Both the position numbers and the translations under genes were made by a program. The notes under the pieces were generated by a model. The model saw only the letters and a program-made list of their open reading frames with translations, had not been told where the DNA came from and did no database searches. Below are positions 2-31,295 of a stretch of 64,000 nucleotides of DNA, piece after piece; the first letter of the stretch is position 1, and each line of letters opens with the position of its first letter. Source of the stretch: Afipia sp. (GTDB lineage: Bacteria > Pseudomonadota > Alphaproteobacteria > Rhizobiales > Xanthobacteraceae); NCBI GenBank assembly GCA_024707075.1, contig JANQAK010000005.1, positions 101,362 through 165,361 of the forward strand, given 5' to 3'.

Positions 2-610
2 GCCTGGACGAGGAGTGATCAGGGTAGCGTGATAACAATCCTCAACAAGCACCGCACGATTATTGCGTCTAGGCAGGAAAAGGAGCGAGTGTCCGGCGAT
101 CTCAATCGGCTGATTGAGATGACAAATAAGGGAGCCACGATCGGCGACGTGTTGGGGTATGTGCGATCAAGTAAGCTCATGCCTATACTCGATCAATTGG
201 CGGAGCGCTTAGATGCGAAGCAGGTCATCATAAAGGAAGATGGAGAGCCGGAGAAAGATGGCGTATTTTTCGCCGCGTTATTCGCTGTACCGTTCAAGCA
301 GGTGACCCTCTATCGCGCAGTCTTAGAACGAAACATGCCTTACTCGACCAAGCATGGCGTGAAGGGTGATGAATTCGACACTGTCTTCGTTGTTCTTGAC
401 GATGCAGGTGCGAATTGGAGCCAATATTCATTCTCGAATCTTCTGGCAGCCAGTGACACGAACGAGGCTCGGGTTCAGCGTACGCGAAATCTGTTTTATG
501 TTTGCTGTTCTCGCGCGAAGCGAAATCTCGCGGTGATTGATCTCGCAGGGGTTGGATCGGGAAGAGCTACGATTGAAGCGCTCTTCGGAGCGGAAAACTG
601 CATGTTTTAG
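2..610 (+). CDS. UvrD/SF1 helicase C-terminal part (5' truncated by window edge; GajB-like possible)
   Basis: Frame open from base 2; motifs TKHGVKGDEFDTV (V) and RNLFYVCCSRAK (VI). Confidence 0.85.
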   Translation, partial: AWTRSDQGSVITILNKHRTIIASRQEKERVSGDLNRLIEMTNKGATIGDVLGYVRSSKLMPILDQLAERLDAKQVIIKEDGEPEKDGVFFAALFAVPFKQVTLYRAVLERNMPYSTKHGVKGDEFDTVFVVLDDAGANWSQYSFSNLLAASDTNEARVQRTRNLFYVCCSRAKRNLAVIDLAGVGSGRATIEALFGAENCMF

Positions 611-13066: not shown

Positions 13067-13375
13067 AAAATTCTCCTGAAAATTAATTGCAAACTCTGGC
13101 GACGCGTGTCCGTAACAGAACCGGTCGATCGGAATAAAAATGCAATGATAGAAAGAGGGGTCAAAAACGTCGCGATTGAAACACTGACGTTAAAGATTTG
13201 CAATCAGCAGTTGCTGTCATAATTATGTGTCAGCCCCGCCATCCCGGAAGGTCGCAGCGGCTATTACTTCCAGCTCGCCTACGGCTTTTCGGAGCTTTCG
13301 GGCGGGGGTCTGGGGCTTGCCCCCAGCGGCGTGTATTCAACAGACGAATGACACCACGCTTTCGTCAGAGACTGA

Positions 13376-14300
13376 TCACTGAAAGGTAAATTTCGCTGAA
13401 TCGCGCGACGTATTGATGCGAAAAAAACCTTTCCGCGCTTCTCCCGCAATACACTGCTCGCCCACGCGAACGACCCTGTATGTTTGCCGAGGGCTGACGC
13501 AGGCATATGCTGTATCTCCGGCCCACTGATGGCCTCGTTGCTCAGCTTGTCCCGCTGCGAAAACAGCAAGGTCGGCTTTCGGAAACATTCCGGCTTCGGT
13601 GCATTTTCCAGGAGGGATGGAGAACCAACCGCTTAGCATGCGTTTTTTGGCATCATAGGGATGCTGGTGGTAGAGAATTGCTGCAGCATTAACGGAACTG
13701 GTATTGCACAAGGTAGTTGCGATCGTTTCAATTCGGTTCGATTGGTCAGTTGAAGGAGAAGTCTTCGCATTTGCTACAGGAACAGGAGTCAGCCGATAAA
13801 CAAGCTGAGCGGAATTTGCATAGGATCTCAATGCCGAGAATAACTTCTCGTTATCGTCAAAATAGCAGGTAGAAATGTAACCTCCTGAAACCTTCTCCTT
13901 GGGTGGATATTGTTCGGCGGCTGGGGTTTCCAGAAAGCCGCTGCAGTCTGGTCCATAGATTAAGATGGCTCCATCTTTGACACGCACCAAAGCGTAACTA
14001 TGCTCCGACCTTAAGCCGTAATCCAACACATATAAATCTCGATCGAGCTCATAGAAATTTGCTGTTGTACTGACGTTGCCGTCTCCAGAAATCTTGTAAA
14101 AATCGTTAGATATCTCGACGGTCATGGGATTCTCCGTTTTCCAGAGACCCTCGCTAAATTTCTCCACTTTGTATTGGCCCGCGGCAAAGGGGAAAACCGA
14201 AACGCTAGTATCAAAAACAGCTTCTTTGGAGAGAAAGCATCCCTGCACGAGGAAACAGATACACATCATCCAAATTGCACGGATAAAGCGGTTTACTCCT
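13376..14300 (-). CDS. Probable lipoprotein with C-terminal DUF1036-like domain (start uncertain)
   Basis: FLVQGC lipobox-like; TLCNTS...GWFSIPPGKC...WAG...CV. Confidence 0.6.
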
Positions 14301-14345
14301 ATGGATTGCGTGCACCGCTCGTGCAAAGGTATGGCCCTATTCATT

Positions 14346-14837
14346 ATGTCTCGACGCATGTCCAAGAGCGTTTGTTTTACGGTTAGGTGTTGGAAGGTCG
14401 CCGGGTGGTCAACGCTGGCACTGATGACGTTTTCTATGCTGGAGTTGCCGAGGCTTCGCGCGCAGAACGCTTCTAAGGTCAGCACTCTCACTTTCTCAAT
14501 CTGCAATAAGACGTCGAAAACGATAAGTGCAATTATTGTGCGTCGCTCGACATTTGACGAAAACTGGTGGTTGGAGGGCTGGTACGCTGCCGCTCCCAAT
14601 TCGTGCAAAGACGTTAGTGGAATTCCCCGTGGCTATTTCTATTATTATGTGACCCAGGAAGGCACGAATACTATTTGGTCAGGTGATGCGCGCCGCGTGT
14701 GCGTCGATACTAGGGTAGTGGAGAGAGTTATCTTCCCGAAGGAGCAATGTTTAACGGGAGAGACGAATGCGGGATTTGCTGAGGCTTTTAGTCTAAGTGA
14801 TAAGATCGAGTTGCCCTTCATGGATAAGGTCCGCTAG
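14346..14837 (+). CDS. Exported DUF1036-like protein
   Basis: FSICNKT...EGWYAAAPNSC...YYY...WSG...CV pattern. Confidence 0.7.
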   Translation: MSRRMSKSVCFTVRCWKVAGWSTLALMTFSMLELPRLRAQNASKVSTLTFSICNKTSKTISAIIVRRSTFDENWWLEGWYAAAPNSCKDVSGIPRGYFYYYVTQEGTNTIWSGDARRVCVDTRVVERVIFPKEQCLTGETNAGFAEAFSLSDKIELPFMDKVR

Positions 14838-15520
14838 CGGAGATTAATCCAGGCTGGCGGACTTCCGCGACCGAATGGCTCGATGTCTAATTGAGGAGGA
14901 GGAGCAAAGCTTCCGTCGGCACATACCCCGAGGTCACCTTTGACGTTGTAGTCCACGCATGGGTCTCCAAGTACCGAGCTGTCAGCTCTGTCGAGTTTGC
15001 GCTGTTCATCACGTGCAGCCTGACGGGCTAAAATGTAATCGTAACTGGCCAGAACGCCGCCCACTAACAACGCGGTGCCTCCTATGCCCAAAGCCAGCGG
15101 ACACCCCAAACCTGCCGTGCCAACACAGATCTCGGCTGCCGCCCCCATGCCGATCTCAGCTACGCCCCATCCAATAAATGCGCGGCCGCGTGCGTGGGTT
15201 TTATCTTGGCCCTGCCCGCGCCCCTCATCGTAGGTATCGTAGGCATTCCATGCGGCAAAGGCTCCGCCCGTTACTTTTAATGGTATTGTCGGAAGCTTAT
15301 TTCGCTCGGCCAATATTGTTAACGCTGAGATCGATGCTTCGGCAGTTAGTCGGGTCTCCTTTACTGCCATTTCTGATGGAGAGGCGTCGAGAATCTGTAT
15401 CTGACTTTTTTGAGCAGCAGCCTTTACAACGAAGGGCCAGGGTGATCCATCAAAGCCACAGAAGAAAGTCGTGGAGGCGACCGTCGCCGCCCTCAGTATT
15501 CGAAATGAGCAGCTCATCAA
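14834..15520 (-). CDS. Hypothetical protein with Gly-rich hydrophobic hairpin
   Basis: GWGVAEIGMGAAAEICVGTAGLGCPLALGIGGTALLVGGVLA. Confidence 0.6.
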   Translation of the reverse strand: MMSCSFRILRAATVASTTFFCGFDGSPWPFVVKAAAQKSQIQILDASPSEMAVKETRLTAEASISALTILAERNKLPTIPLKVTGGAFAAWNAYDTYDEGRGQGQDKTHARGRAFIGWGVAEIGMGAAAEICVGTAGLGCPLALGIGGTALLVGGVLASYDYILARQAARDEQRKLDRADSSVLGDPCVDYNVKGDLGVCADGSFAPPPQLDIEPFGRGSPPAWINLR

Positions 15521-15548
15521 GATTCCTCACAAGTATGTTCTGCAAAAA

Positions 15549-16373
15549 TCAATAAGAAAAGAAGATGCGCGCTTTCTTTACTTGGCATGAGGGAGCCGGT
15601 GTCGTTTCCAGGAAAGCGAATTCTCTGCCCAACTGATCGTCTTGCAAAATGACGTTATCGACGTTCGAAATACGCACCATTACCCTTGGGATCATGCGCT
15701 CGGCGACCTTCTTTCCCCCGGTAAAGCGGAGTGCGAAAGTTTCGCTTCCTCGATAAGCATCAATGTTTTCCACGCAAGTGGATGACAAATAGTCGTTGAC
15801 AGATTGAACGTAAGCCATCAAAGCCGTCGTGACTATCTTGGCGGCTTTTTCATCTTGCTGTAATGCCAAAATATCTCGGCGCATGCTGTCCTCATCTTTT
15901 TCCAAGAGGATGGCGGTATCTCTTTGTAATTTTGGCCGCTGCCTAAACGTACGCAAGGCAAAGTCCGAATCTTCGGAAATGCGACCTTTTCCCACCACAT
16001 AATTAAGCGCATCTCCATGGGCCAGGTAAACTACTTCCGGGCCACTCTGCTTGTTGGTGCCAATTATCGTAAAGAGATCTATTAGCGTTGAGTAAAGGAC
16101 AATGAACCGTCCGCTAGGGGACTTTTCCACACTTGAGGTGGAGATAATCATCTCTGCTAGGGCGTCGAATCCCATCGCTTGCTTGGCAGTCAGTTCTGAT
16201 GGGGAGACGCCATTCAAGCGCTCGATAGCTTCTGTAATTTTTTGTCTTAGCGCAGGCTGATTTGGAAGTTGACGCAAGATCAGGACTTCGGGAGGTCTGG
16301 TCTCCGCTTCTGCAGCTAGATTTAAAATTACGCTGGTAGTCAGAACCGCCAATAACGAAAGCCATTTCAACAT
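15549..16373 (-). CDS. Exported hypothetical protein (274 aa)
   Basis: Signal peptide MLKWLSLLAVLTTSVILNLAAEA. Confidence 0.7.
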   Translation of the reverse strand: MLKWLSLLAVLTTSVILNLAAEAETRPPEVLILRQLPNQPALRQKITEAIERLNGVSPSELTAKQAMGFDALAEMIISTSSVEKSPSGRFIVLYSTLIDLFTIIGTNKQSGPEVVYLAHGDALNYVVGKGRISEDSDFALRTFRQRPKLQRDTAILLEKDEDSMRRDILALQQDEKAAKIVTTALMAYVQSVNDYLSSTCVENIDAYRGSETFALRFTGGKKVAERMIPRVMVRISNVDNVILQDDQLGREFAFLETTPAPSCQVKKARIFFSY

Positions 16374-16669
16374 TTGGTTCAGCGCCTTTTTTGTTACTAT
16401 GCATGCTAGCTCGCGGCCTGTCCGATTAGAAGTGGTGCTTTGCTGAAGTTTGATGAATTAAGAGGCGCAAGAATACGGTTCGGACAATTGTTAGGCGCTC
16501 TAGCGAGGAACGCAAACGCGAGGGGCCGGACACACCTTTGGCCGGTTTGTCAGACCAACCACATACTTTGTCCGACGCTAAAATCGGTACTCTGAAGGGT
16601 TTCTGCTCGAGGCGTCTTGCGGCGAAATTACCGCGTATCTGAGATCGAAGAAGTCTCGATTAGGTAATT

Positions 16670-16694
16670 GCGCACTTATACATCGCTACGCGAC
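16670..16694 (-). mobile_element. oriT1 (MobQ/IncQ-pTi type)
   Basis: GCGCACTTATACATCGCTACGCGAC; minus strand has the TAAGTGCG^C nick core; TCGC/GCGA repeat; just upstream of relaxase. Confidence 0.75.
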
Positions 16695-16766
16695 AATAGG
16701 TGCACGGCCGACACAGGTGTGTCTAATGGCCGTAAGGTGTCGCAAGCGACAAGGGCAGGGAGGGCG

Positions 16767-17948
16767 ATGGCGTCTTATCATTTCTCGGCACAGGCGGTGA
16801 AACGCTCGGAAGGGCGTTCGGTCGTTGCCATGGCGGCCTATCGTGCTGGCGAGAAACTGAGAGATGAGCGTCGTGGGGTTGATGCTGATTACAGCAGGCG
16901 GCGTGGGGTTGTTCACGCCGAGATCATAGCGCCGGAAGGAAGCGCCGAATGGCTGCTTGACCGCGAGCAATTGTGGAACAGGGTTGAGAAGAGTGAAATC
17001 CGACGCGACGCACAGTTGGCGCGGGAGATCAACATGGCCTTGCCATGTGAGTTGACTGACGAGCAACGGCTTGCCCTGGTTCGGGAGTTTGTTGCTGCTG
17101 AGTTCGTATCGCTGGGGATGGTCGCGGATTTCGCCATCCACGAACCGGTTGCCGAGAAGGGGGACGATCCCCGGAATTTTCATGCGCATGTGCTGTTGAC
17201 CCTGCGCCAGGCGGGCGGCGGTGGGCTCCGCCGCGTAAAGACGCGGGAATGGAATAGCGACGCCATGCTGGCCAAATGGCGGGCCGCCTGGGCCGAACAC
17301 CAGAACAGGGTTCTGCGCGAACGCGGGCTCGCGGTGAAGGTCGATCATCGCAGTCTTGAGGTGCAGAGAGCGGAGGCCGTGGCCCGGCGCGAGCCAGGGC
17401 TGGCCGCTATGCTCGACAGGTTTGCGGAGATTCATGTGGGGCCGAAGGCCCGGAAGGCGGGCTTTGCCGGGACGCCGCAAAGTCGAGAGCGTGAGGCTGG
17501 GCCATTTCGTATACGGGAGATGCCATCTCCGGCCAGGCGCGTGGTTCGCTATCCCGAGTTGGACCAGGGCAGTCGTGGTTATGCGAACATCAAGAGGCTT
17601 AGCTCCAACGGGGAGCGGTTCGCGGCCATGGCGGCGAAGATCGAACGGCAAGCCGAGCGTATGCGCCGTAGGCAGGCTTATTACGAGTCGCTGATTGCGA
17701 AAGAGCGTTCGACCACCCAAGACCGGCAAAAATCATTTAAAGGGCGTCCTGAGCGGTATGAGCACGCCTTGAAGCGGTGCGAGCAGGTGGCGTTCTGGCT
17801 GGCGGAGCTGGATAAGCTTTTTTTCGCAGTATTGGGCATTCGCGAGAGCCAGCTTATGCGGCGCACCGTTTGGCCGAACCGGATGAGGCGGTGGCGGCGT
17901 CTTGATCTTGAGCCGACGCGGGGTGGTGGCCGGAATCGCGCGCGTTGA
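16767..17948 (+). CDS. MobA/MobL (MobQ) relaxase 1
   Basis: MASYHFSAQAVKRSEGRSVVAMAAYR, REINMALPCEL, FAIHEP...NFHAHVLLT, VDHRSL. Confidence 0.9.
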   Translation: MASYHFSAQAVKRSEGRSVVAMAAYRAGEKLRDERRGVDADYSRRRGVVHAEIIAPEGSAEWLLDREQLWNRVEKSEIRRDAQLAREINMALPCELTDEQRLALVREFVAAEFVSLGMVADFAIHEPVAEKGDDPRNFHAHVLLTLRQAGGGGLRRVKTREWNSDAMLAKWRAAWAEHQNRVLRERGLAVKVDHRSLEVQRAEAVARREPGLAAMLDRFAEIHVGPKARKAGFAGTPQSREREAGPFRIREMPSPARRVVRYPELDQGSRGYANIKRLSSNGERFAAMAAKIERQAERMRRRQAYYESLIAKERSTTQDRQKSFKGRPERYEHALKRCEQVAFWLAELDKLFFAVLGIRESQLMRRTVWPNRMRRWRRLDLEPTRGGGRNRAR

Positions 17949-19430
17949 ACTGCAGAGGCCAGCGGTCGTACTTGCCCCACCAGCGGAAATGACGCCACGA
18001 ACGGTAGTTGATTTTGGTGGCAAGCACTGGATACCGCAGCACGTCGCTGCGGTAGAATGCCAGCGCGCGGTTGCCGGGCAGGCGCATCACTTCGGAAGGA
18101 TCAAGAAGCCAGCGGCCGGTCTCCGCTATGCCGAGGGAATACTGCTGTCGCACGAAGTCGGTATTGGCCTGCGAGGTGCCCTGGTTATGGGCAAGGGAGG
18201 TGGTCTGGCCGATCATCTCCGAGATGAACCTGGCTGCTTCGAGGTCGGCGACGTTGAAGAAGACCTTGCAGGTCGCGTTGGCCAGGAATGAACCCGCGCG
18301 TTTGTAAAGCGCGCGAAGCTGGTTCAGGTCCTGAAAGATGAGCATGGGCGTGCAGTAGGCGCGCAAGTAACCGACGCCGCGTTCGAGTGGCTCAAGCGTG
18401 CCGAGCGCGGCGGCTTCGTCGAGCAGGAGCAGGACTTTGTGTTTTGGTCGCGGGCGGTTCTTGGCGCGCGTGAGTGCGTTGAGCACGCAGCCGACCATCA
18501 CGCGGAGGAATCCCGCGTAGATGGAGAGTTTCTCCTCATCGACAACGAGGTACAGCGTCTTGGTCTGGTCAACGAGTGCCGAGAGTTTGAACGTGGAGTG
18601 TGAGGAGATCGTGCCGGCAGGGCTGCCGGCCGACCATACCCGCGTAGCTTTCTCGGTGTTGGACATGACGCTGCGGAATTCCTCGCTGCCCTCCATGGCC
18701 AGGAAGCTGCCCGCCAGTTCGGCGGCTGCGCGCGGGCCATCGCGCGAGATCTGGAGCAGGAGCTCCTTGAACGATTCCGGTGGGAGCGTGGAAAGTGACC
18801 GCAGTTGAGCCAGCGTGCGGCGTTCGAGGTCCAGGCGGACCACGTGCAGGATCAGGCATGTGACCATGCCCTCCGCCTTGCTGTCCCAATGGCTTTCCTT
18901 GCCATCCGGAACGATCATGAGCTTGGCGAGCGCTTCGGCGTCGTCTTTTTCGTGGATGGTATCCACGCGAACCATGTCGAGCGGGTTGAAGCGGTCGGAA
19001 CTATGCGGATCGGTGGTGTCGAGGATACGCACCGGCCCGAACTCGCGGCGGCGACGATGGGTGATCGCACGGTTCTCGCCCTTGATGTCGGTACAGACAA
19101 CGGAGCCGCGATACTCAAGCAGGTTCGGGATGACGATGCCGACGCCTTTGCCCGCGCCCATTGGCGCGAACACGGTCACCATGCCGTCCTTGTTGAAGCG
19201 CAAAAAGAACGGCCTGTGCGGCCGATGATGGGACCATTGCCTCTCCGCACGCCTGACCAGAGCAACTCCCATGGGTTGGCGAAGCGGGCAGAGCCCAAGG
19301 CTCCCCCTGGGTTAAAGCCGCCCCAGCGATACAGCGTGCGCAACAGTGACGCTGTTCTTAGTGTGAGCCAGAAGGCGGTCCGTGCGAGCAACCAAGAGAG
19401 TTTCAACAGAAGCAAGAACGCACGCACCAT
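17854..19430 (-). CDS. VirD4/TraG-type coupling protein 1 (frameshift ~19210)
   Basis: N-terminal TM + GSARFA in ORF 19176-19445; APMGAGKG, TDIKGE, FNPLD, LLLDEAA in 17854-19272. Confidence 0.85.
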
Positions 19431-19625
19431 GCGCGAGTCTTGCACAGGGCGGGGTGAGGCTTAAGCGAATTGCAGACAGCGGGTGGCATTGTTGGGAAAG
19501 CCGGAGGGAAGGGCAGACGTAAGACATCGGAGGGCCGTACCCGCCGCCTGGCCGTCAAGGGTTATGCGAGCGGCTGCGCCGCCCTTGACTGCGGCGGCAG
19601 ATGGCGGCTGTTTGCTGGCCAGCGG

Positions 19626-21368
19626 CTAAGGCCGCACTCTGGACGCGTCCGAAGGCTCAACGGATTGGGCGCGGTGGAAGAATTGCTTGTGCAGCACCAG
19701 CGGTGTTTCGTTCGCGCCGAGCGTGAAGATGCTGTCCCGATGCGCTGGCCCCATGATGTCGGCCGTTTCGATGACCGGACGCTTGGTGCTTTCAAGTACG
19801 CTGTCGGCTTTGCCGAACGCCCGCGCGATGCGGTCCGCGATGGCGGACGGCGGGTTCATGTACATACGCACGTCGCAGTTTTCCATCATGCCGTCGCCGA
19901 CGCCGGGATAGGCGTGGACGATCTGCTCGGCATATTGCGCGAACATCCAGAGCTTGATGCCATAGGAGCGGCCGACCTCCAGTGCTTCGCGAACGGGCTC
20001 CATCCGGCCAAGTCGCGGCAGTTCGTCGAGCATGAACAGGATCGGTGCGGCGGGTTTGGAGTCGCGGCGCATCAACCGGCGTACATGCTGGCCGATGATG
20101 ACGCGCAGGACCGGGGCGTAGGTCTCGATCGCGTTGGGAGGAATGCAGAGATAGAGTGTGGGGCAGGGCGCGGTCGCCAAATCCTCGGGATGCCAATCGG
20201 AGTGCCCGGTGACACGCTCAAGCTTGGGCCCTTCCCATACTTGCAAATGCTGCGAGGCACCGCTGAGCACCCCTTCAAACTGCCTGGGGGCGGCTTTTGC
20301 CATTTGGCCAAAGCGCGCGGCCACGCGCTTCATCGCGGAGGGTAGCGGGCAATCAACATGGCTGACGGTCGCGAACATGTCAGCGAGACCAATGGTTGCG
20401 ACCAGGTCGAGCACTTGCGACATCTTTCTCGCGTCCGCTTCGTTCACGACTACATAGGCAATGATAAGGGTCAGCAGGTCCTTGCCCTGGCTTTCCCAGG
20501 TCGGATCGTGCTGGCTGCGCGTCACGACCAGGAGTTCGGCGAGGAATCGGGCGCTCTCCCACAACTCGTCGGGATGATCATCAACGAAGGCGAGTGGATT
20601 GTAGCTGGCGCTGTGTTCAGGCTCGACGGGGTTGAAGCGGATCACCGGTCCGATGTTCGCGCTGCGCCATGCCGCCGTGTGTTCGTGGCACTCGCCCTTG
20701 ATGTCGAGCACGATCGCGGGTCCACGGTACGACGCCAGCGCAGGCAATACGTGGCATTGGGTCTTGCCCTTGCCGGACGGCGCGATGGTGAGAAGCGAGG
20801 CTTCGCCGACGTAATGGACGGTCTTGCCGTTGGCGGGATTTTGGCCAAGTGGAAGCGCGTAAGGGCCGGGTTCTTCCGAGAACAGCGCTGAGTCCAGTCC
20901 TGTGGGTTTCGGCGGGGTAACGTGGCGGGCCAGCCAGGCCCGCAAGACCGGCGGAGAATCCGCCTGCTGATGTTCGCGGATTTTTTCGCTGATGAGGTTG
21001 GCGTAGGCCGACAGGTTCTTGGGGACGAAGTGTTCGGAGCGGTCGCTGATGAGACCATGCATGACCGCGTGGTCATGACCCGGATAGGTCACGCCGGAAA
21101 ACGCTGCTTTCCCGTCGGCGTAGGTGGCCGACGCGATGAGCTGTTCGGCCGTCGCGCGGTCAATCGAGCCGATACCCGCCAACAGCATGGTGAACTGGAA
21201 AACAAACTTCTCGTACTCGGAAAACTGATACGCGGGGCGGGCGAAGACGTAGGAGCCTTCGTTCAGCTTCCAGCCCGCCTTGACGATGTCGGTCGGCTCC
21301 TGAAACGTCTTCTCGGCAATCACGAGAAAACGCTGCAACGGCTCGTCGAAGGGATGAGGGCTGTCCAT
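19626..21368 (-). CDS. VirD4/TraG-type coupling protein 2 with soluble N-terminal extension
   Basis: APSGKGKT, LDIKGE, YNPL, FMLDELP, GRSYGIKLW. Confidence 0.85.
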   Translation of the reverse strand: MDSPHPFDEPLQRFLVIAEKTFQEPTDIVKAGWKLNEGSYVFARPAYQFSEYEKFVFQFTMLLAGIGSIDRATAEQLIASATYADGKAAFSGVTYPGHDHAVMHGLISDRSEHFVPKNLSAYANLISEKIREHQQADSPPVLRAWLARHVTPPKPTGLDSALFSEEPGPYALPLGQNPANGKTVHYVGEASLLTIAPSGKGKTQCHVLPALASYRGPAIVLDIKGECHEHTAAWRSANIGPVIRFNPVEPEHSASYNPLAFVDDHPDELWESARFLAELLVVTRSQHDPTWESQGKDLLTLIIAYVVVNEADARKMSQVLDLVATIGLADMFATVSHVDCPLPSAMKRVAARFGQMAKAAPRQFEGVLSGASQHLQVWEGPKLERVTGHSDWHPEDLATAPCPTLYLCIPPNAIETYAPVLRVIIGQHVRRLMRRDSKPAAPILFMLDELPRLGRMEPVREALEVGRSYGIKLWMFAQYAEQIVHAYPGVGDGMMENCDVRMYMNPPSAIADRIARAFGKADSVLESTKRPVIETADIMGPAHRDSIFTLGANETPLVLHKQFFHRAQSVEPSDASRVRP

Positions 21369-21373
21369 CGGCG

Positions 21374-22150
21374 TCAGAAGCGATCCATCTGGCGCTGCAC
21401 CACGTGCGCGATAGCCAGCTTCTTCTCGTTGATGAGACGAATGATCTCGGAGCCGCTGGATTGGAAATACCGGGGGCCGTCAAATTGGACGATGTAGACC
21501 TCTCCGGTTTTGAAATTCCATCCGACGATGTGACAGTGGTAAAGGCCGCGCGGGACCTGGACGGTCTGCTTGTCCTGGGTTTCGACCATGGCGGCACCAT
21601 CGGAGATTTCCGCGACGAATTTGGCGGGGAGTACCGGGTCAACCGGCTCAAAGTATTCGATGGCGCTAAGCTGGGGCTCCGAGCCATCGCGGCCAAACGC
21701 GACGGTGAATTCGAAACCGTCCTCTGAGCTGTAATCGCCGTCCTCGAACGGCAGGCCTGCGGGGTTGAGCTGGGTATCGCCCATCAAGGCGACAAAGTCG
21801 GCGAACAGGTGTTCCTCATCCTCCATGTTGCTCATCTGAAGGGACACCGCGCCGTCTTGGTGGGCAAACCCGAAGCGGGGATAATCATAGGTCTGGGCGT
21901 GCCAGCTCACCGACCAGAACTTGCCGGGGTCCACCCGGAGCTCACGAAAACCGTCCCAGGCGCGGATGAAGCCCGCAGGTGAGGTAGTGCGAAAGCGGCG
22001 TGCGCCTTCATCAAGGTATAGCGAACTTCCGGCTTCGACCTTCACGAGGGAAAAGTCGATCCTGGCGGGACTGCCATCGCGGATGTTGAGGGGCTGTAAC
22101 CACGGCAAAACAATTTCAGCCGCCTCCTGGGCGACAATTTCCAAAGCCAT
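21374..22150 (-). CDS. Hypothetical protein, likely co-transcribed with coupling protein 2 (start uncertain)
   Basis: 5-nt gap to the T4CP2 ATG; acidic, aromatic-rich, no recognisable motif. Confidence 0.6.
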   Translation of the reverse strand: MALEIVAQEAAEIVLPWLQPLNIRDGSPARIDFSLVKVEAGSSLYLDEGARRFRTTSPAGFIRAWDGFRELRVDPGKFWSVSWHAQTYDYPRFGFAHQDGAVSLQMSNMEDEEHLFADFVALMGDTQLNPAGLPFEDGDYSSEDGFEFTVAFGRDGSEPQLSAIEYFEPVDPVLPAKFVAEISDGAAMVETQDKQTVQVPRGLYHCHIVGWNFKTGEVYIVQFDGPRYFQSSGSEIIRLINEKKLAIAHVVQRQMDRF

Positions 22151-22359
22151 CGGGGAAAATCCAAAAAGTAAAACCGGGTTGCCAGCATCGAATATCCCGG
22201 CCCGAAACGTCAAGGCTTCCCGCACGACGACCCGGCAGTCAGGAGCTTCGCCCAGACATTCGGCGGGCGGCCGGGCCGCCATCGGACCTGCGTCCCGCTG
22301 GCGTGCCACGGCCGTTCTTGATTCCTGGCGGGATTTGGAGATAGCCTGGCCGGGTCGTT

Positions 22360-22390
22360 AGGGCGCACTTATGGGTTTGCAGGCAAACCC
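22360..22390 (-). mobile_element. oriT2 (RSF1010-like)
   Basis: AGGGCGCACTTA (minus strand TAAGTGCG^CCCT) plus perfect inverted repeat GGGTTTGC-AG-GCAAACCC. Confidence 0.9.
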
Positions 22391-22411
22391 GCGCCCTTCG
22401 GGAGTGCTCGT

Positions 22412-23335
22412 GTGGCGATCTACAGCCTTCACCACAGCCCCGTTGGCAAATCGACCCAGGCGCAGGCTTACACCGCCGCCGCGCATATCAAATACATTAC
22501 CAGGGCGAGAGCATTGAGCCGGGTGGCGGGTGCCCGCATGCCGACCGCTCCCGAAGACGCTATGCGATTCTTGCGGGGAGCCGAAGACACGGACCGGAAG
22601 AATGCGCGGGTGATCGATAAGGTCATGCTGGCCTTGCCGCGCGAGTTGAACGCCAGGCAGCGGGTCGAGCTGGTTCGGGCATATGCCGAGGCGATCACGC
22701 AGGGGCGCGCCTCCTGGCTCGCAGCCTTCCATGAGAAGGGCAAGGATGCCCAGAATCCGCATTGCCATCTGGTCATCCGCGACCGGGATTTTGAAAGCGG
22801 CAAGCGCGTGTTCGGCATGAGCGAAAACGGTTCGACCGAGAAACTGCGGGTGCTGTGGCAGGAATGTGCCAATGCGGCTCTGGTGCAGGCCGACAAGGAG
22901 GCCAGGATCGATCACCGCACGCTTGAGGCGCAGGGCATCGCCCGTGCACCAACCATCCATGAAGGCGTTCGCGGCCGCCGGATGCATCGCGAACGGCGGA
23001 AGGTCTCCTCACGCAAGCGCACGCGGCGTAACGCCGTGTCGGCCAGAAGCCGCAGCCGCGCGGTCGATTACCCGGCGATCGACAAGGGGCGTTCGCGTTG
23101 CGCCTACAATGAGGTTTTGCGGGCGCGCGCCAACGAGACGGCTTCGGATTATTGGCAGGCGCTTGATGCGGACGCGCAGCACAGGGAGATTGAACAGCTC
23201 CGCGCGATTCATAAACCTTCCCCCACGACCGCGGAGGGGCAGCGCGCGGTATTCCGCACGTACATGCGGAAAGCCAAGCCCGCCACTGCAACAAAGCATA
23301 CACGTAGCCGCGACGATGAGCACGAGCCTGAGTAA
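22412..23335 (+). CDS. MobA/MobL (MobQ) relaxase 2
   Basis: MAIYSL, KVMLALPREL, AAFHE...NPHCHLVIRDRD, IDHRTLEAQGI; GGAG RBS. Confidence 0.9.
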   Translation: MAIYSLHHSPVGKSTQAQAYTAAAHIKYITRARALSRVAGARMPTAPEDAMRFLRGAEDTDRKNARVIDKVMLALPRELNARQRVELVRAYAEAITQGRASWLAAFHEKGKDAQNPHCHLVIRDRDFESGKRVFGMSENGSTEKLRVLWQECANAALVQADKEARIDHRTLEAQGIARAPTIHEGVRGRRMHRERRKVSSRKRTRRNAVSARSRSRAVDYPAIDKGRSRCAYNEVLRARANETASDYWQALDADAQHREIEQLRAIHKPSPTTAEGQRAVFRTYMRKAKPATATKHTRSRDDEHEPE

Positions 23336-23703
23336 TGCTTGTCAACCGGGCCAGCTTTACCCATCATGAACTCATGGCTGATGCCTTGCCCACGCTGGAA
23401 GAGAACGTCGATTGGCGGCAGAAGATCGTGGAAACGCTTGCGGCGAAGCACGAGGCCATAGCGGAAATCGACCGCATGGAAGCCATCATTGCAGAAGCCC
23501 AGGTGGAGATAGATGCGATCCGCGAGTACATGCAGCTCAATCCAGATCCCGACACTGAATTATACGGCTTCGACTGGGCAACCCGCCTGATCGAGGATCA
23601 AAAGTTCTATAATGATCGCATTGCGCTCATGCGCCGTTGCATCGAAACGTTTGATAGGTACGTCGCTGCCGTTCAACCATTGGTGGGATCAAATGACGGA
23701 TGA
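23335..23703 (+). CDS. Hypothetical coiled-coil protein
   Basis: Start overlaps the relaxase stop; helical heptad pattern. Confidence 0.55.
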   Translation: MLVNRASFTHHELMADALPTLEENVDWRQKIVETLAAKHEAIAEIDRMEAIIAEAQVEIDAIREYMQLNPDPDTELYGFDWATRLIEDQKFYNDRIALMRRCIETFDRYVAAVQPLVGSNDG

Positions 23704-24106
23704 GGAAGATGCAACGGCCATCAAGATATTCCTGAAGAGCGGCAAGCCCGCAGATGCGCTTGATCTGTTGGCCATAGAGCGCCGTATCGCGGTTTTGGAA
23801 AGGAAAAGGACCGAGCTGGAGTCCAAGTCGCGGCTTATCCCCGGTCGCAGTGCGCACCTTCGACAGGTAAGGGAGGAGATTGCCGCGCTTGGCTGGGCAG
23901 AAATGTCAGCCAAGGAGCAAGTGCGCGCCAATCGTTACCAGTCCGAAATCCATCAAAAAGAAAAGGAGCGGGCGGTATCCGCCTCCAAACTTGCTTCACA
24001 AGAGCGGGAGGCCTTTCAGGCTTTTGTGGCTGCCCGCAAGGCCGAGGCTTCGTCGGACAAGAATGCAATATCAAGAGAATCCGAGTGCGGGAATGAGCCA
24101 GATTGA
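23693..24106 (+). CDS. Hypothetical coiled-coil protein
   Basis: Overlaps upstream gene; charged helical sequence. Confidence 0.55.
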   Translation: MTDEEDATAIKIFLKSGKPADALDLLAIERRIAVLERKRTELESKSRLIPGRSAHLRQVREEIAALGWAEMSAKEQVRANRYQSEIHQKEKERAVSASKLASQEREAFQAFVAARKAEASSDKNAISRESECGNEPD

Positions 24107-24115
24107 ACACTCTCT

Positions 24116-25258
24116 CTAATTGAGTGCCCGGGGCTTAAGCTCCAGTATTCCGCTTGAGAATGTAACGTTGAACCGGGCGAGGAAGGTCATTCCCAGCAGG
24201 CCATCGATCTGGTCGCCGAAGGCAGTTTCTCTGCCGACCGATATGGCCACCGGGACGCTGGTAGCACTTGTTTGGCCGACCTGGATAAGTTGGGCATAGC
24301 CCGGCGCGGATTGCACCGTGCCTCCGACCACTTGGAACGTCATCAGGTTCTGTTCGTCGGGGAGTATGCGCGCGCGGGCTGCCAGCCCGGGTGTGATCGA
24401 AACCATGGAGGCACCGGTATCAACAATCATGCGTGCCTTGACGCCGTTAATCGTTACATCGACGATATTGTTCTGTGTAATCCAGACTTTGTCGCTGCCG
24501 GATGCGTAGCTCGCGCGGCAGTTGCCGTCGTTGGCATATTCCGTGATCATTTTTGTGAGCTGTGGCGTCTGCCGCTTTGTGACATTGTACGAAATGTACA
24601 TCTCAAGCGGCGTGATCGCGTCGCAGTATCGTCCGATTGCCGCATACATGCGTGAGATGCGATAGAACTCGCTTACCGAAACGTTCGATAGATCGGTGAA
24701 GAGCTGGAGAGCGCTGACATAGTCGCTGAGTGCGCCTCGTGGGTTCTTCATTCCTTCATATGCCGTCCCACGCAGATAGCGGTAACGGCTTCGCGCCTGG
24801 TCGAGTTTGATCATCTCGTTGGCGACGGCGACGGCGCTGCTGAAATCATTGATCCGGGTCAGCGCGGCATATGCTTCCTCAAGAAGCTGGCTGTTGTGTC
24901 CGCAGCGCTCACCGAATTTACGTGCGGCGGTCGCTCCATCCCGGGGATACCCAACGCTCACCAGCAGTTTGACGAGCGGCAATATGGCTTCCCTATCGCA
25001 CGGCTCACGCTGGAGTTGGCCAAGAAATTTCGTGCCAGAGGCGCTCTTTTCAACGTCTGCGGTGGATGCGGGCGATAGGCCAAGCTGTTCGTAAACCGAT
25101 TTGAAATCAGGTCGCGAGTTGGCGATGCTCAGCGGGTAAGTTTGGCTAAAATAGATGTAAGCACCCACCGCAATCGCAATAAGCGTGGAGAAGCCTACGG
25201 CAATTGGGACGAAGTAACCTGAGCGTTCCGTGTAGGGCGGTGCAATTCGTTCGGGCAT
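24116..25258 (-). CDS. Membrane-anchored TPR + retropepsin-like aspartic protease
   Basis: N-terminal TM, TPR-like helices, MIVDTGAS, GLLGMTFL. Confidence 0.85.
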   Translation of the reverse strand: MPERIAPPYTERSGYFVPIAVGFSTLIAIAVGAYIYFSQTYPLSIANSRPDFKSVYEQLGLSPASTADVEKSASGTKFLGQLQREPCDREAILPLVKLLVSVGYPRDGATAARKFGERCGHNSQLLEEAYAALTRINDFSSAVAVANEMIKLDQARSRYRYLRGTAYEGMKNPRGALSDYVSALQLFTDLSNVSVSEFYRISRMYAAIGRYCDAITPLEMYISYNVTKRQTPQLTKMITEYANDGNCRASYASGSDKVWITQNNIVDVTINGVKARMIVDTGASMVSITPGLAARARILPDEQNLMTFQVVGGTVQSAPGYAQLIQVGQTSATSVPVAISVGRETAFGDQIDGLLGMTFLARFNVTFSSGILELKPRALN

Positions 25259-26324: not shown

Positions 26325-26635
26325 GCGGGTGTGGCGAAATTGGTAGACGCAACGGACTTAAACGATCGCTTGATTGCTCGGAGGGAAATCTCCGATGCAG
26401 AACTGCTCAAAGTCGGGGAAACCTTTTAAATGGCAATCCCGAGCCAAGCCCCAACAAGGTTGGGGAAGGTGTAGAGACTAGACGGGCAGCACCTAAGGCA
26501 GTTGAGTTATCTTGCTAGGGTGAAGGGATAGTCCAGACCACAAACGCATTTAAAACGCGGCGGCGAAAGCCGTAGAGGGTAAGAAAATCCGTAGGGCAAT
26601 TGCCTGTCCCGGTTCGAGTCCGGGCGCCCGCACCA
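26325..26635 (+). tRNA. trnL: tRNA-Leu(UAA), intron-containing (exons 26325-26359 and 26584-26635; 87 nt mature)
   Basis: Spliced form: acceptor GCGGGTG/CGCCCGC, anticodon arm ACGGA-CTTAAAA-TCCGT, long variable arm, CCCGG-TTCGAGT-CCGGG, encoded CCA. Confidence 0.95.
26360..26583 (+). ncRNA. Group I intron (trnL/IC3-like, 224 nt, no ORF)
   Basis: Inserted U^AA, ends in G; core elements AAAGTCGGGGAAACC, GGCAATCCCGAGCCAAGC, AGGTGTAGAGACTAGACGG, GAAGGGATAGTCCA; hairpins TCGGAG/CTCCGA, CCCCAAC/GTTGGGG, GCGGC-GAAA-GCCGT. Confidence 0.92.
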
Positions 26636-31237: not shown

Positions 31238-31295
31238 GGACTTAAAATCCCTCGATGGCAACGTCGTGCGGGTTCGATTCCCGCCGTCCGCACCA
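31238..31295 (+). mobile_element. attR-like site: 3' half of tRNA-Leu(UAA)
   Basis: GGACTTAAAATCC, variable arm CGATG-GCAA-CGTCG, GCGGG-TTCGATT-CCCGC, CCA; no D-arm or 5' acceptor upstream; AT-rich flank with paired TAGCA repeats (31161, 31173). Confidence 0.85.

Follow-up and report, generated by a model that had tools for sequence, protein, structure and literature searches.

Mobilisable elements that carry their own type IV coupling protein (T4CP) are known but have been described as rare, CloDF13 with its MobB being an example (PMC7431656). In the 64-kb stretch of Afipia sp. DNA considered here (64,000 nt of contig JANQAK010000005.1, which is contig C4 of the genome; in the following, the window), a DNA island harbors two relaxase genes, each with its transfer origin (oriT) and with a VirD4-family T4CP gene. 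The island was compared with the closest described systems. It shares with RSF1010/R1162 an HUH relaxase with a catalytic tyrosine and a three-histidine motif, an oriT in which an inverted repeat is followed by TAAGTGCGCCCT, and the dependence on a helper. RSF1010, however, lacks a T4CP of its own, uses that of the helper, and specifies a MobA-primase fusion together with MobB and MobC, whereas the relaxases of the island are short and each is accompanied by a VirD4-family ATPase. CloDF13 also supplies relaxase, oriT, and its own T4CP, and only the mating channel is borrowed. It differs in being a single module with a MOBC relaxase and a T4CP whose three-helix membrane domain is essential, while the island contains two MOBQ modules, one T4CP having at most one weak helix and the other none.

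Mobilisable plasmids and integrative mobilizable elements of Mesorhizobium that lack traACD were reported to bear 'one or more copies of a virD4-like T4CP gene', and four MOBQ genes on three plasmids as well as one plasmid with two mobP1C loci and virD4, but no type IV secretion system (T4SS), were listed (Colombi et al. 2021, PMC8627217). In that survey, the pairing is mentioned in passing and is not treated as a conserved unit, oriT sites are not mapped, no such pair is reported from Afipia or Bradyrhizobium islands, and the gene order is different (PMC8627217). Two relaxases of the same MOB class on one non-conjugative element are also a property of the two-relaxase plasmids analysed by Coluzzi et al. 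(PMC9185392). In the island, in contrast to these plasmids, purifying selection acts on a pair that is fixed in a clade, and a separate T4CP accompanies each relaxase. ICEclc is an integrated, self-transmissible element with two functional oriTs, both of which are served by one relaxase. The island has two relaxases and two T4CPs instead, and mating-pore genes are absent. In the literature searched, a dual core of this kind, conserved and composed of MOBQ relaxases and T4CPs, was not found to be described for Afipia or Bradyrhizobium islands.

From these comparisons and the analyses below, the region from 16.67 to 24.1 kb appears to be the transfer core of an integrative mobilizable element of about 36 kb, integrated in tRNA-Leu(UAA) and carrying two MOBQ-type modules of separate lineages; the probability of this reading is put at about 0.72. 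Judged by sequence, module 1 consists of oriT1, mobA1, and a convergent gene for the short T4CP1, and module 2 of oriT2, mobA2 with two small genes, and the divergent pair orfX-T4CP2. Gene order, coordinates, and strands of the two relaxase genes, the two virD4 genes, and the additional open reading frame (ORF) had been given in a first-pass annotation of the window, and Pfam matches and ORF positions agreed with them. The features are as follows:

16664 to 16735, minus strand: oriT1, nick core ATAAGTGCGC at 16670-16679 and conserved flank
16767 to 17948, plus strand: mobA1, MobQ-family relaxase, 393 aa from ATG (PF03389, 2e-61)
17854 to 19430, minus strand: T4CP1, short VirD4/TraG-family coupling protein, frameshifted (PF02534, 3e-68)
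19626 to 21368, minus strand: T4CP2, VirD4-family ATPase, 580 aa (PF02534, 5e-50)
21374 to 22309, minus strand: orfX (orf311), partner of T4CP2, no family match
22350 to 22400, minus strand: oriT2, inverted repeat at 22373-22390 and core at 22363-22372
22412 to 23335, plus strand: mobA2, divergent MobA/MobL relaxase, 307 aa (PF03389)
23335 to 24106, plus strand: orf122 and orf164, small genes directly 3' of mobA2, syntenic in relatives
24116 to 25258, minus strand: membrane-anchored retropepsin-like aspartyl protease (PF13975 and PF13650, 1e-17)

The genes mobA1 and T4CP1 are convergent and overlap by 95 nt at their 3' ends, and 195 bp separate the stop of T4CP2 from the start of T4CP1. The G+C content of 16.6-25.3 kb is 0.58-0.63, within a surrounding stretch of about 0.50.

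MobA1 matched PF03389 (MobA_MobL) with 207.9 bits (cut-off 26.7, E = 2e-61) and passed the MobQ equivalog NF041496 of NCBIfam (247.8 bits, cut-off 200). The nearest solved structures in a PDB search were the NES nicking enzyme 4HT4 (9e-25) and R1162 MobA (2NS6). The tyrosine of AAYRAG aligns with the catalytic tyrosine position of NES, which is occupied by phenylalanine in the 4HT4 chain, and the three-histidine motif (H..HAH) is seen as IHE...FHAHVLL. MobA2 reached 87.4 bits with PF03389 (cut-off 26.7, E = 1.6e-24) and 67.3 bits with the NCBIfam MobQ model, below the cut-off of 200. Its best PDB match was R1162 MobA (2NS6, 7.5e-8) with the H...NPHCH motif aligned, and FHEKGKDAQNPHCH of MobA2 is aligned to the histidine residues of the R1162 protein. 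The tyrosine of (H)I.YI(T/M)R (Y28, in YITR) is invariant in 14 of 14 homologues, which is not the case for a nearby tyrosine. The two relaxases are only 33% identical over 122 aa, in accordance with the divergence noted before. A recent duplication was ruled out by the identities between the paired proteins of 26-33% (relaxases 33%, T4CPs 26%).

The 10-mer ATAAGTGCGC is present in exactly two copies in the 64-kb window, against a chance expectation of 0.12. Both copies, at 16670-16679 and 22363-22372, are on the minus strand, as had been annotated. They are located 40-97 nt upstream of the relaxase starts, each beside a different hairpin, and the assignment of a distinct oriT to each relaxase was thereby upheld: each has its own core copy upstream and a different inverted repeat. 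In oriT1, a proximal short inverted repeat (TCGC..GCGA) and a distal hairpin (GACACA..TGTGTC within GGCCG arms) are both found 5' of the core on the nicked strand, and the predicted DNA fold has -15 kcal/mol (z = -3.1). Compared to the published MOBQ oriT consensus NWACCNNTAAGTGCGCCCTYNN (PMC3832669), TAAGTGCGC is kept in oriT1, and AAT or CAT replaces CCT. Upstream of mobA1 homologues, the core and its flank have been conserved, the exact 10-mer being missing in two distant loci, and the proximal repeat covaries in the related loci L025 and L026 (for example, ACATTGAT..ATCAATGT in L026). On the nicked strand of oriT2, GGGTTTGC-CT-GCAAACCC (22373-22390) is directly followed by ATAAGTGCGCCCT, with a predicted fold of -14.6 kcal/mol (z = -3.8). 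This site agrees with NWACCNNTAAGTGCGCCCTYNN at all specified positions except Y. Repeat and core of oriT2 are conserved upstream of every mobA2 homologue examined, and compensatory changes are found in the repeats of L021, L058, and L060 (GGGTTTTC..GAAAACCC in the latter two). By these sequence features, both sites are predicted oriTs of the MOBQ type, with a nick region that resembles TAAGTGCGCCCT, follows a conserved inverted repeat, and is located beside the relaxase gene. The two cores are directly oriented in all dual loci in which both could be located.

Two further observations were made at the transfer origins. An outer stem GGGCGC/GCGCCC was detected in oriT2 (22350-22400, minus strand), in which sequence upstream of the inverted repeat pairs with part of the nick core; the predicted nick site would therefore be base-paired in the folded single strand. 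At oriT1, homology with related islands ends within 4 nt of the core, and homology with a second copy of the region on contig C5 of the same genome ends at 16666. Where the metagenome island L028 (95% identical) has 82 bp, a low-GC segment of 3.3 kb is present in the window (13360-16665). It codes for a DUF1036 protein and two small exported-looking proteins, and its right edge is within 4 nt of the oriT1 nick core. Judged by these boundaries, the nick-distal side of oriT1 looks like a hot spot of cargo insertion or recombination.

The combination of both modules was detected in all of the 11 loci examined of the Afipia/Bradyrhizobium T4CP1 clade, which comprises two genera. These loci are found in B. 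japonicum CP126006, B. diazoefficiens, the metagenome islands L028-L030, two other Afipia species genomes, the metagenome-assembled genome SZAS LIN-22, and three further Bradyrhizobium genomes, which were taken from the T4CP1 match list without prior knowledge of the gene context. The second copy in the same genome, which also belongs to the dual loci of the clade, is inverted (C5:~31.5-40.3 kb). Compared to the window, mobA1 and T4CP1 of this copy show 86% DNA identity, but module 2 is of a different type, with T4CP2 36% and MobA2 59% identical and unrelated orfX proteins. Two gene orders were observed among the relatives, order A (mobA1> <T4CP1 <T4CP2 <orfX oriT2 mobA2>) and order B (T4CP1> <mobA1 ... 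<mobA2 oriT2 T4CP2>). T4CP2 occurs in at least three architectures, with 580 aa including an N-terminal domain, with about 800-1250 aa including a fused orfX and a C-terminal extension, or with about 430 aa. Ratios of non-synonymous to synonymous substitutions (dN/dS, unsaturated dS) were 0.06-0.3 for mobA1, T4CP1, T4CP2, orfX, and mobA2 (0.10-0.14 for mobA1 and likewise for mobA2, 0.14-0.21 for T4CP2, 0.21-0.29 for orfX), values that indicate purifying selection on all five core genes.

In a tree of T4CPs, T4CP1 forms a well-supported clade that is sister to the canonical two-helix TraG of the genome, and T4CP2 forms one of its own. Within the T4CP1 clade, dual loci are found in three or more separate places, and module-2 types alternate among close module-1 relatives. 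Separate and looser pairings were found on a Mesorhizobium plasmid with a third gene order and in L054, from another genus of the family; plasmid NZ_AP023253 of Mesorhizobium sp. 131-2-5 carries a MobQ+T4CP and MobA-MobL+T4CP pair. Identity profiles are mosaic, with a recombination breakpoint at the T4CP1/T4CP2 junction. Cassette exchange between the nick sites was rejected, because the breakpoints do not coincide with oriT2. A simple recent tandem insertion, one way in which the first-pass annotation might have failed, does not apply with relaxases 33% and T4CPs 26% identical and the pair present in 11 of 11 clade loci. A megablast search of the region against the PLSDB plasmids gave two trivial matches only. 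In Tardiphaga sp. P9-11 (L026/L050), T4CP1 and mobA1 are accompanied by a distant T4CP2-like ATPase; a second relaxase or an oriT2 core was not found there. A 565-aa product of the same locus is a homologue of the C-terminal extension that is seen in T4CP2 of the C5 type.

Each module also occurs on its own. As the sole transfer region, module 2 (mobA2, oriT2, orfX, T4CP2) is found on a 23-kb Labrenzia plasmid, a 32-kb Rhizobium paknamense contig with plasmid replication and partition genes, pAtCFBP6626d of A. tumefaciens, and a scaffold of Rhodoplanes. Module 1 (oriT1 and mobA1 with the convergent T4CP1) was found alone on a 12.5-kb Gellertiella plasmid, on pMLSU343b of M. loti, and in six other genomes of the family. 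According to the MOB-suite labels in PLSDB, six of seven module-1 plasmids are 'non-mobilizable', but in the module-1 plasmid inspected, pMLSU343b (NZ_CP033370.1), a MobQ relaxase is annotated, and a T4CP and an oriT core are also present. Conversely, pAtCFBP6626d (CP039921.1) is labelled 'conjugative, MPF_T', but its record is devoid of VirB genes, which ruled it out as a self-transmissible carrier of module 2. Since typing labels are contradicted by gene content in these cases, the mobility of Rhizobiales replicons and of islands with defence genes is misjudged.

Both T4CPs matched PF02534 (T4SS-DNA_transf, cut-off 20.1), T4CP1 with 231 bits (E = 3e-68) and T4CP2 with 171 bits (E = 5e-50). 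Walker A and Walker B motifs are readable in both (APSGKGKT and FMLDE in T4CP2), and neither protein reached a curated TraG or VirD4 subfamily cut-off. The two are 26% identical. In the window, the ATPase body of T4CP1 extends over 17854-19272, while the first 84 codons, including an N-terminal hydrophobic helix, are read in a different frame (19430-19176). A run of five T residues is present at 19206-19202, whereas six are found in eight of eight intact orthologues, including the 95%-identical metagenome island and the C5 copy. Intact relatives comprise 504-525 aa and have a hydrophobic helix at the start. This helix, the single weak one predicted for the T4CP1 family by a Kyte-Doolittle scan, is detached by the frameshift in the window copy. 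The dN/dS of the ATPase part compared to the C5 copy is 0.06; the lesion is therefore recent, or it is an assembly error. The completeness estimate of the genome, 99.7%, weakly favours a real mutation. A genome-wide scan for ORF breaks linked to homopolymers gave 454 candidates; most of them are neighbouring genes of this GC-rich genome, and the scan was uninformative on assembly quality. Deletion of the membrane domain abolishes function in TrwB, MobB of CloDF13, and PcfC (PMC7431656). Since the helix is split from the ATPase, module 1 is probably disabled in the window copy; in the paralogous island on C5, T4CP1 is intact. The description of the region as two complete modules has to be corrected accordingly for the window, where T4CP1 is frameshifted, and the probable inactivity of one module, which had been considered as an argument against it, concerns the window copy and not the family.

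Neither an N-terminal hydrophobic segment nor a transmembrane helix was detected in T4CP2 and four homologues, as judged solely by a Kyte-Doolittle scan, which predicts two transmembrane helices in the canonical TraG proteins of the genome. The N-terminal domain of T4CP2, about 190 aa, was modelled with moderate confidence (predicted local distance difference test, pLDDT, 72.4), and the model had no fold match in the PDB (best E 0.11, TM-score below 0.25). The true start of orfX is likely at 22150, resulting in a protein of 258 aa, for which Pfam and NCBIfam gave no match. The gene is located directly upstream of T4CP2 in type-a module-2 loci. At the same position in type-b loci, an ORF unrelated to orfX is fused in frame to T4CP2 (1175 aa in L027, 1252 aa in L037). 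The AlphaFold2 (AF2) model of the orfX protein is mostly beta with a pLDDT of 86.8, and again no PDB fold was matched (best E 0.06, TM-score below 0.25). In the C5 island (L019 7798-11213, corresponding to C5:33798-37213), there is an overlap of 67 nt between the orfX-like gene and T4CP2, which are read in different frames; in the Afipia relative G167 (98% identical), one open frame of 1252 aa is found, and in B. diazoefficiens a fusion of 1166 aa. By sequence, the C5 copy may contain a frameshift in its own module 2. In L034 (Afipia genome G037), a TAG at ~9212 cuts about 10 residues off the end of T4CP2.

The small genes orf122 and orf164 are syntenic in L020, L028, L031, and L034, and small ORFs are found in the same position on plasmids with module 2 alone. 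Matches to Pfam or NCBIfam families were not obtained for either of them; they probably encode accessory proteins of module 2. The aspartyl protease (24116-25258), for which one N-terminal transmembrane helix and a helical middle region are predicted, adjoins the dual module in L019, L028, L031, L034, L037, and L059, which represent several genera.

The island appears to extend from C4:~96.4 kb, where a 5' fragment of tRNA-Leu and an integrase-like ORF are located, to about 31.25 kb of the window. It includes an intron-containing tRNA-Leu (26325-26635). Copies of the attachment site (att) core were found only at the left end, where the tRNA-Leu 5'-half fragment C4:96432-96463 matches 26331-26362, at 26331-26362 itself, and as a 12-nt repeat at ~31238-31249, and none was detected inside the module region (16.7-24.1 kb). 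The proposal of tandem or nested elements was not borne out, since there is neither an integrase gene nor an att copy between the modules and the genes are together in 11 of 11 related loci. For the same reasons, no att copy or recombinase gene in 16.7-24.1 kb and both modules in every clade locus, the region does not look like an accretion of two separate elements. The cargo is largely devoted to defence, with XhoI restriction-modification, a Gabija-like OLD ATPase with a split helicase, PLD, ApeA/HEPN, and Fic. The Gabija-like pair is situated at the left end of the island (C4:98290-101159 and window 2-610); its OLD-family ATPase (666 aa) looks intact, and the adjacent UvrD-like helicase appears split into at least two ORFs (158 and 202 aa).

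Proteins for mating-pair formation (MPF) were not found among the island ORFs scanned with Pfam. The absence of mating-pore genes from the window had been noted, and PF03135 (VirB4/TrbE) has no match on the whole of contig C4. The only two matches to this family in the genome are on contig C3; the two genes are about 94% identical, i.e. of one type. In addition, two canonical TraG genes with two transmembrane helices each are present elsewhere in the genome, on C3 and C4. The TrbE and TraG genes on C3 and C4 could provide helper functions for the island. It is correct to describe the region as one whose mobilisation depends on a helper and which comprises two distinct sets of relaxase, oriT, and T4CP.

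Transfer could proceed as follows. The island would excise, and either relaxase would cut within ATAAGTGCGC on the minus strand of the oriT that belongs to it, recognition being provided by the inverted repeat specific to the module. The relaxase would stay on the 5' end and would be passed by its cognate T4CP to a T4SS channel encoded elsewhere, for which TrbE/VirB4 on C3 is a candidate. DNA to the left of each nick would enter the recipient first and the relaxase gene last. With two relaxase-T4CP pairs, a wider range of helper T4SSs can probably be used by the island, and two keys for two helpers are a plausible description of the arrangement; this idea is favoured by purifying selection on both modules and their repeated independent pairing. 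A more specific version, a selected two-channel mobilisation system in which each pair serves a different class of helper and T4CP2 with orfX constitutes a new soluble adaptor docking on the helper's coupling protein or channel, is tentative, with the odds rather against it.

Several observations weigh against the interpretation as a functional mobilizable element with two modules. T4CP1 is broken in the window copy, further genes of the island are split, and this copy may be decaying. In the metagenome relative L028, orfX contains an in-frame stop at ~7390 (..KVEA*SSLY..). The integrase-like ORF at the left end (402 aa) is a sub-threshold match to Phage_int_SAM_5 (E = 7.6e-4, 20.2 bits, cut-off 22.3). 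The TrbE genes identified are nearly identical, and nothing in this host points to an advantage of using two different helpers. Finally, the route of T4CP2 to the channel is unexplained, because it has no membrane domain, and deletion of this domain abolishes function in TrwB, MobB, and PcfC (PMC7431656).

The last point would be accommodated if the four proteins formed one interdependent machine, in which the anchorless T4CP2 needs T4CP1, by mixed hexamers or a relay, and the relaxases share a route. A transmembrane helix is not predicted for T4CP2, in contrast to the hydrophobic helix at the N terminus of the T4CP1 family, and T4CPs without a membrane domain were non-functional when tested (PMC7431656). 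The T4CP genes are adjacent, co-oriented, and about 195 bp apart in arrangement A, and the pair is universal in the clade. However, module 2 occurs without T4CP1 on at least four plasmids or scaffolds and module 1 alone in eight loci, the T4CP genes are not adjacent in arrangement B, and the window copy keeps an intact module 2 despite its broken T4CP1, so that a joint machine is considered unlikely. Even less probable is a neutral scar of cointegration or accretion, i.e. fused elements with one module as dead weight heading for loss. According to Coluzzi et al. (2022, PMC9185392), two-relaxase plasmids are rare and to be interpreted as transient, there being little selection for carrying more than one relaxase, and lesions such as the frameshift in T4CP1 of the window, the orfX stop in L028, and a C-terminal frame change of T4CP1 in the metagenome-assembled genome L031 would fit. 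These lesions, however, affect different genes in different copies, and dN/dS is 0.06-0.3 for every gene. Both modules are kept in 11 of 11 clade loci from two genera, pairing has occurred independently at least three times, and module 2 has been swapped for other types and not lost.

The two remaining explanations are given hardly any weight. Directly oriented oriTs with a common nick core could allow the 5.7-kb segment between them to transfer or excise as a mini-element, as the first-pass annotation had also suggested. The 10-nt cores are indeed identical and directly oriented in every dual locus with both located, and at the oriT1 core homology with relatives stops within 4 nt and the 3.3-kb insert abuts. 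The recombination breakpoints, on the other hand, are near the 5' end of T4CP1, at its junction with T4CP2, and not at oriT2 or both nick sites. Such an event would give rise to mobA1-T4CP1-T4CP2-orfX by itself, or to an island that retains mobA2 only and has a hybrid oriT; these products were found in none of the plasmids and loci examined, single-module plasmids included. The inverted repeats also differ, and cross-recognition of the oriTs by the relaxases is therefore not expected. Alternatively, one module might interfere with co-resident conjugative elements or contribute to defence, for instance with its T4CP or relaxase as a decoy. Defence genes are indeed numerous in the island, and both relaxases gave weak PADLOC matches to DpdH (~3e-10). 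Against such a role, canonical conserved oriTs are located directly upstream of both relaxase genes, each module constitutes the sole transfer genes on small plasmids, and no convincing PADLOC system model was obtained for the T4CPs. A reading as a defence system was rejected, as the PADLOC search returned only the weak DpdH matches of the relaxases and a marginal match to mad8, and no system model fits.

Which conjugative machines can be used is thought to hinge on the match between relaxase, coupling protein, and channel. With a pair fixed across two genera, in at least two gene orders, and with one module swapped, these islands offer a natural test system for the widening of helper range. 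If a two-channel system were indeed the explanation, it would run counter to the opinion that several relaxases are of little advantage to mobilisable elements. VirD4-like ATPases without a membrane anchor, travelling with or fused to an adjacent protein that has no fold match in the PDB, also bear on the question of how coupling proteins dock to the channel.

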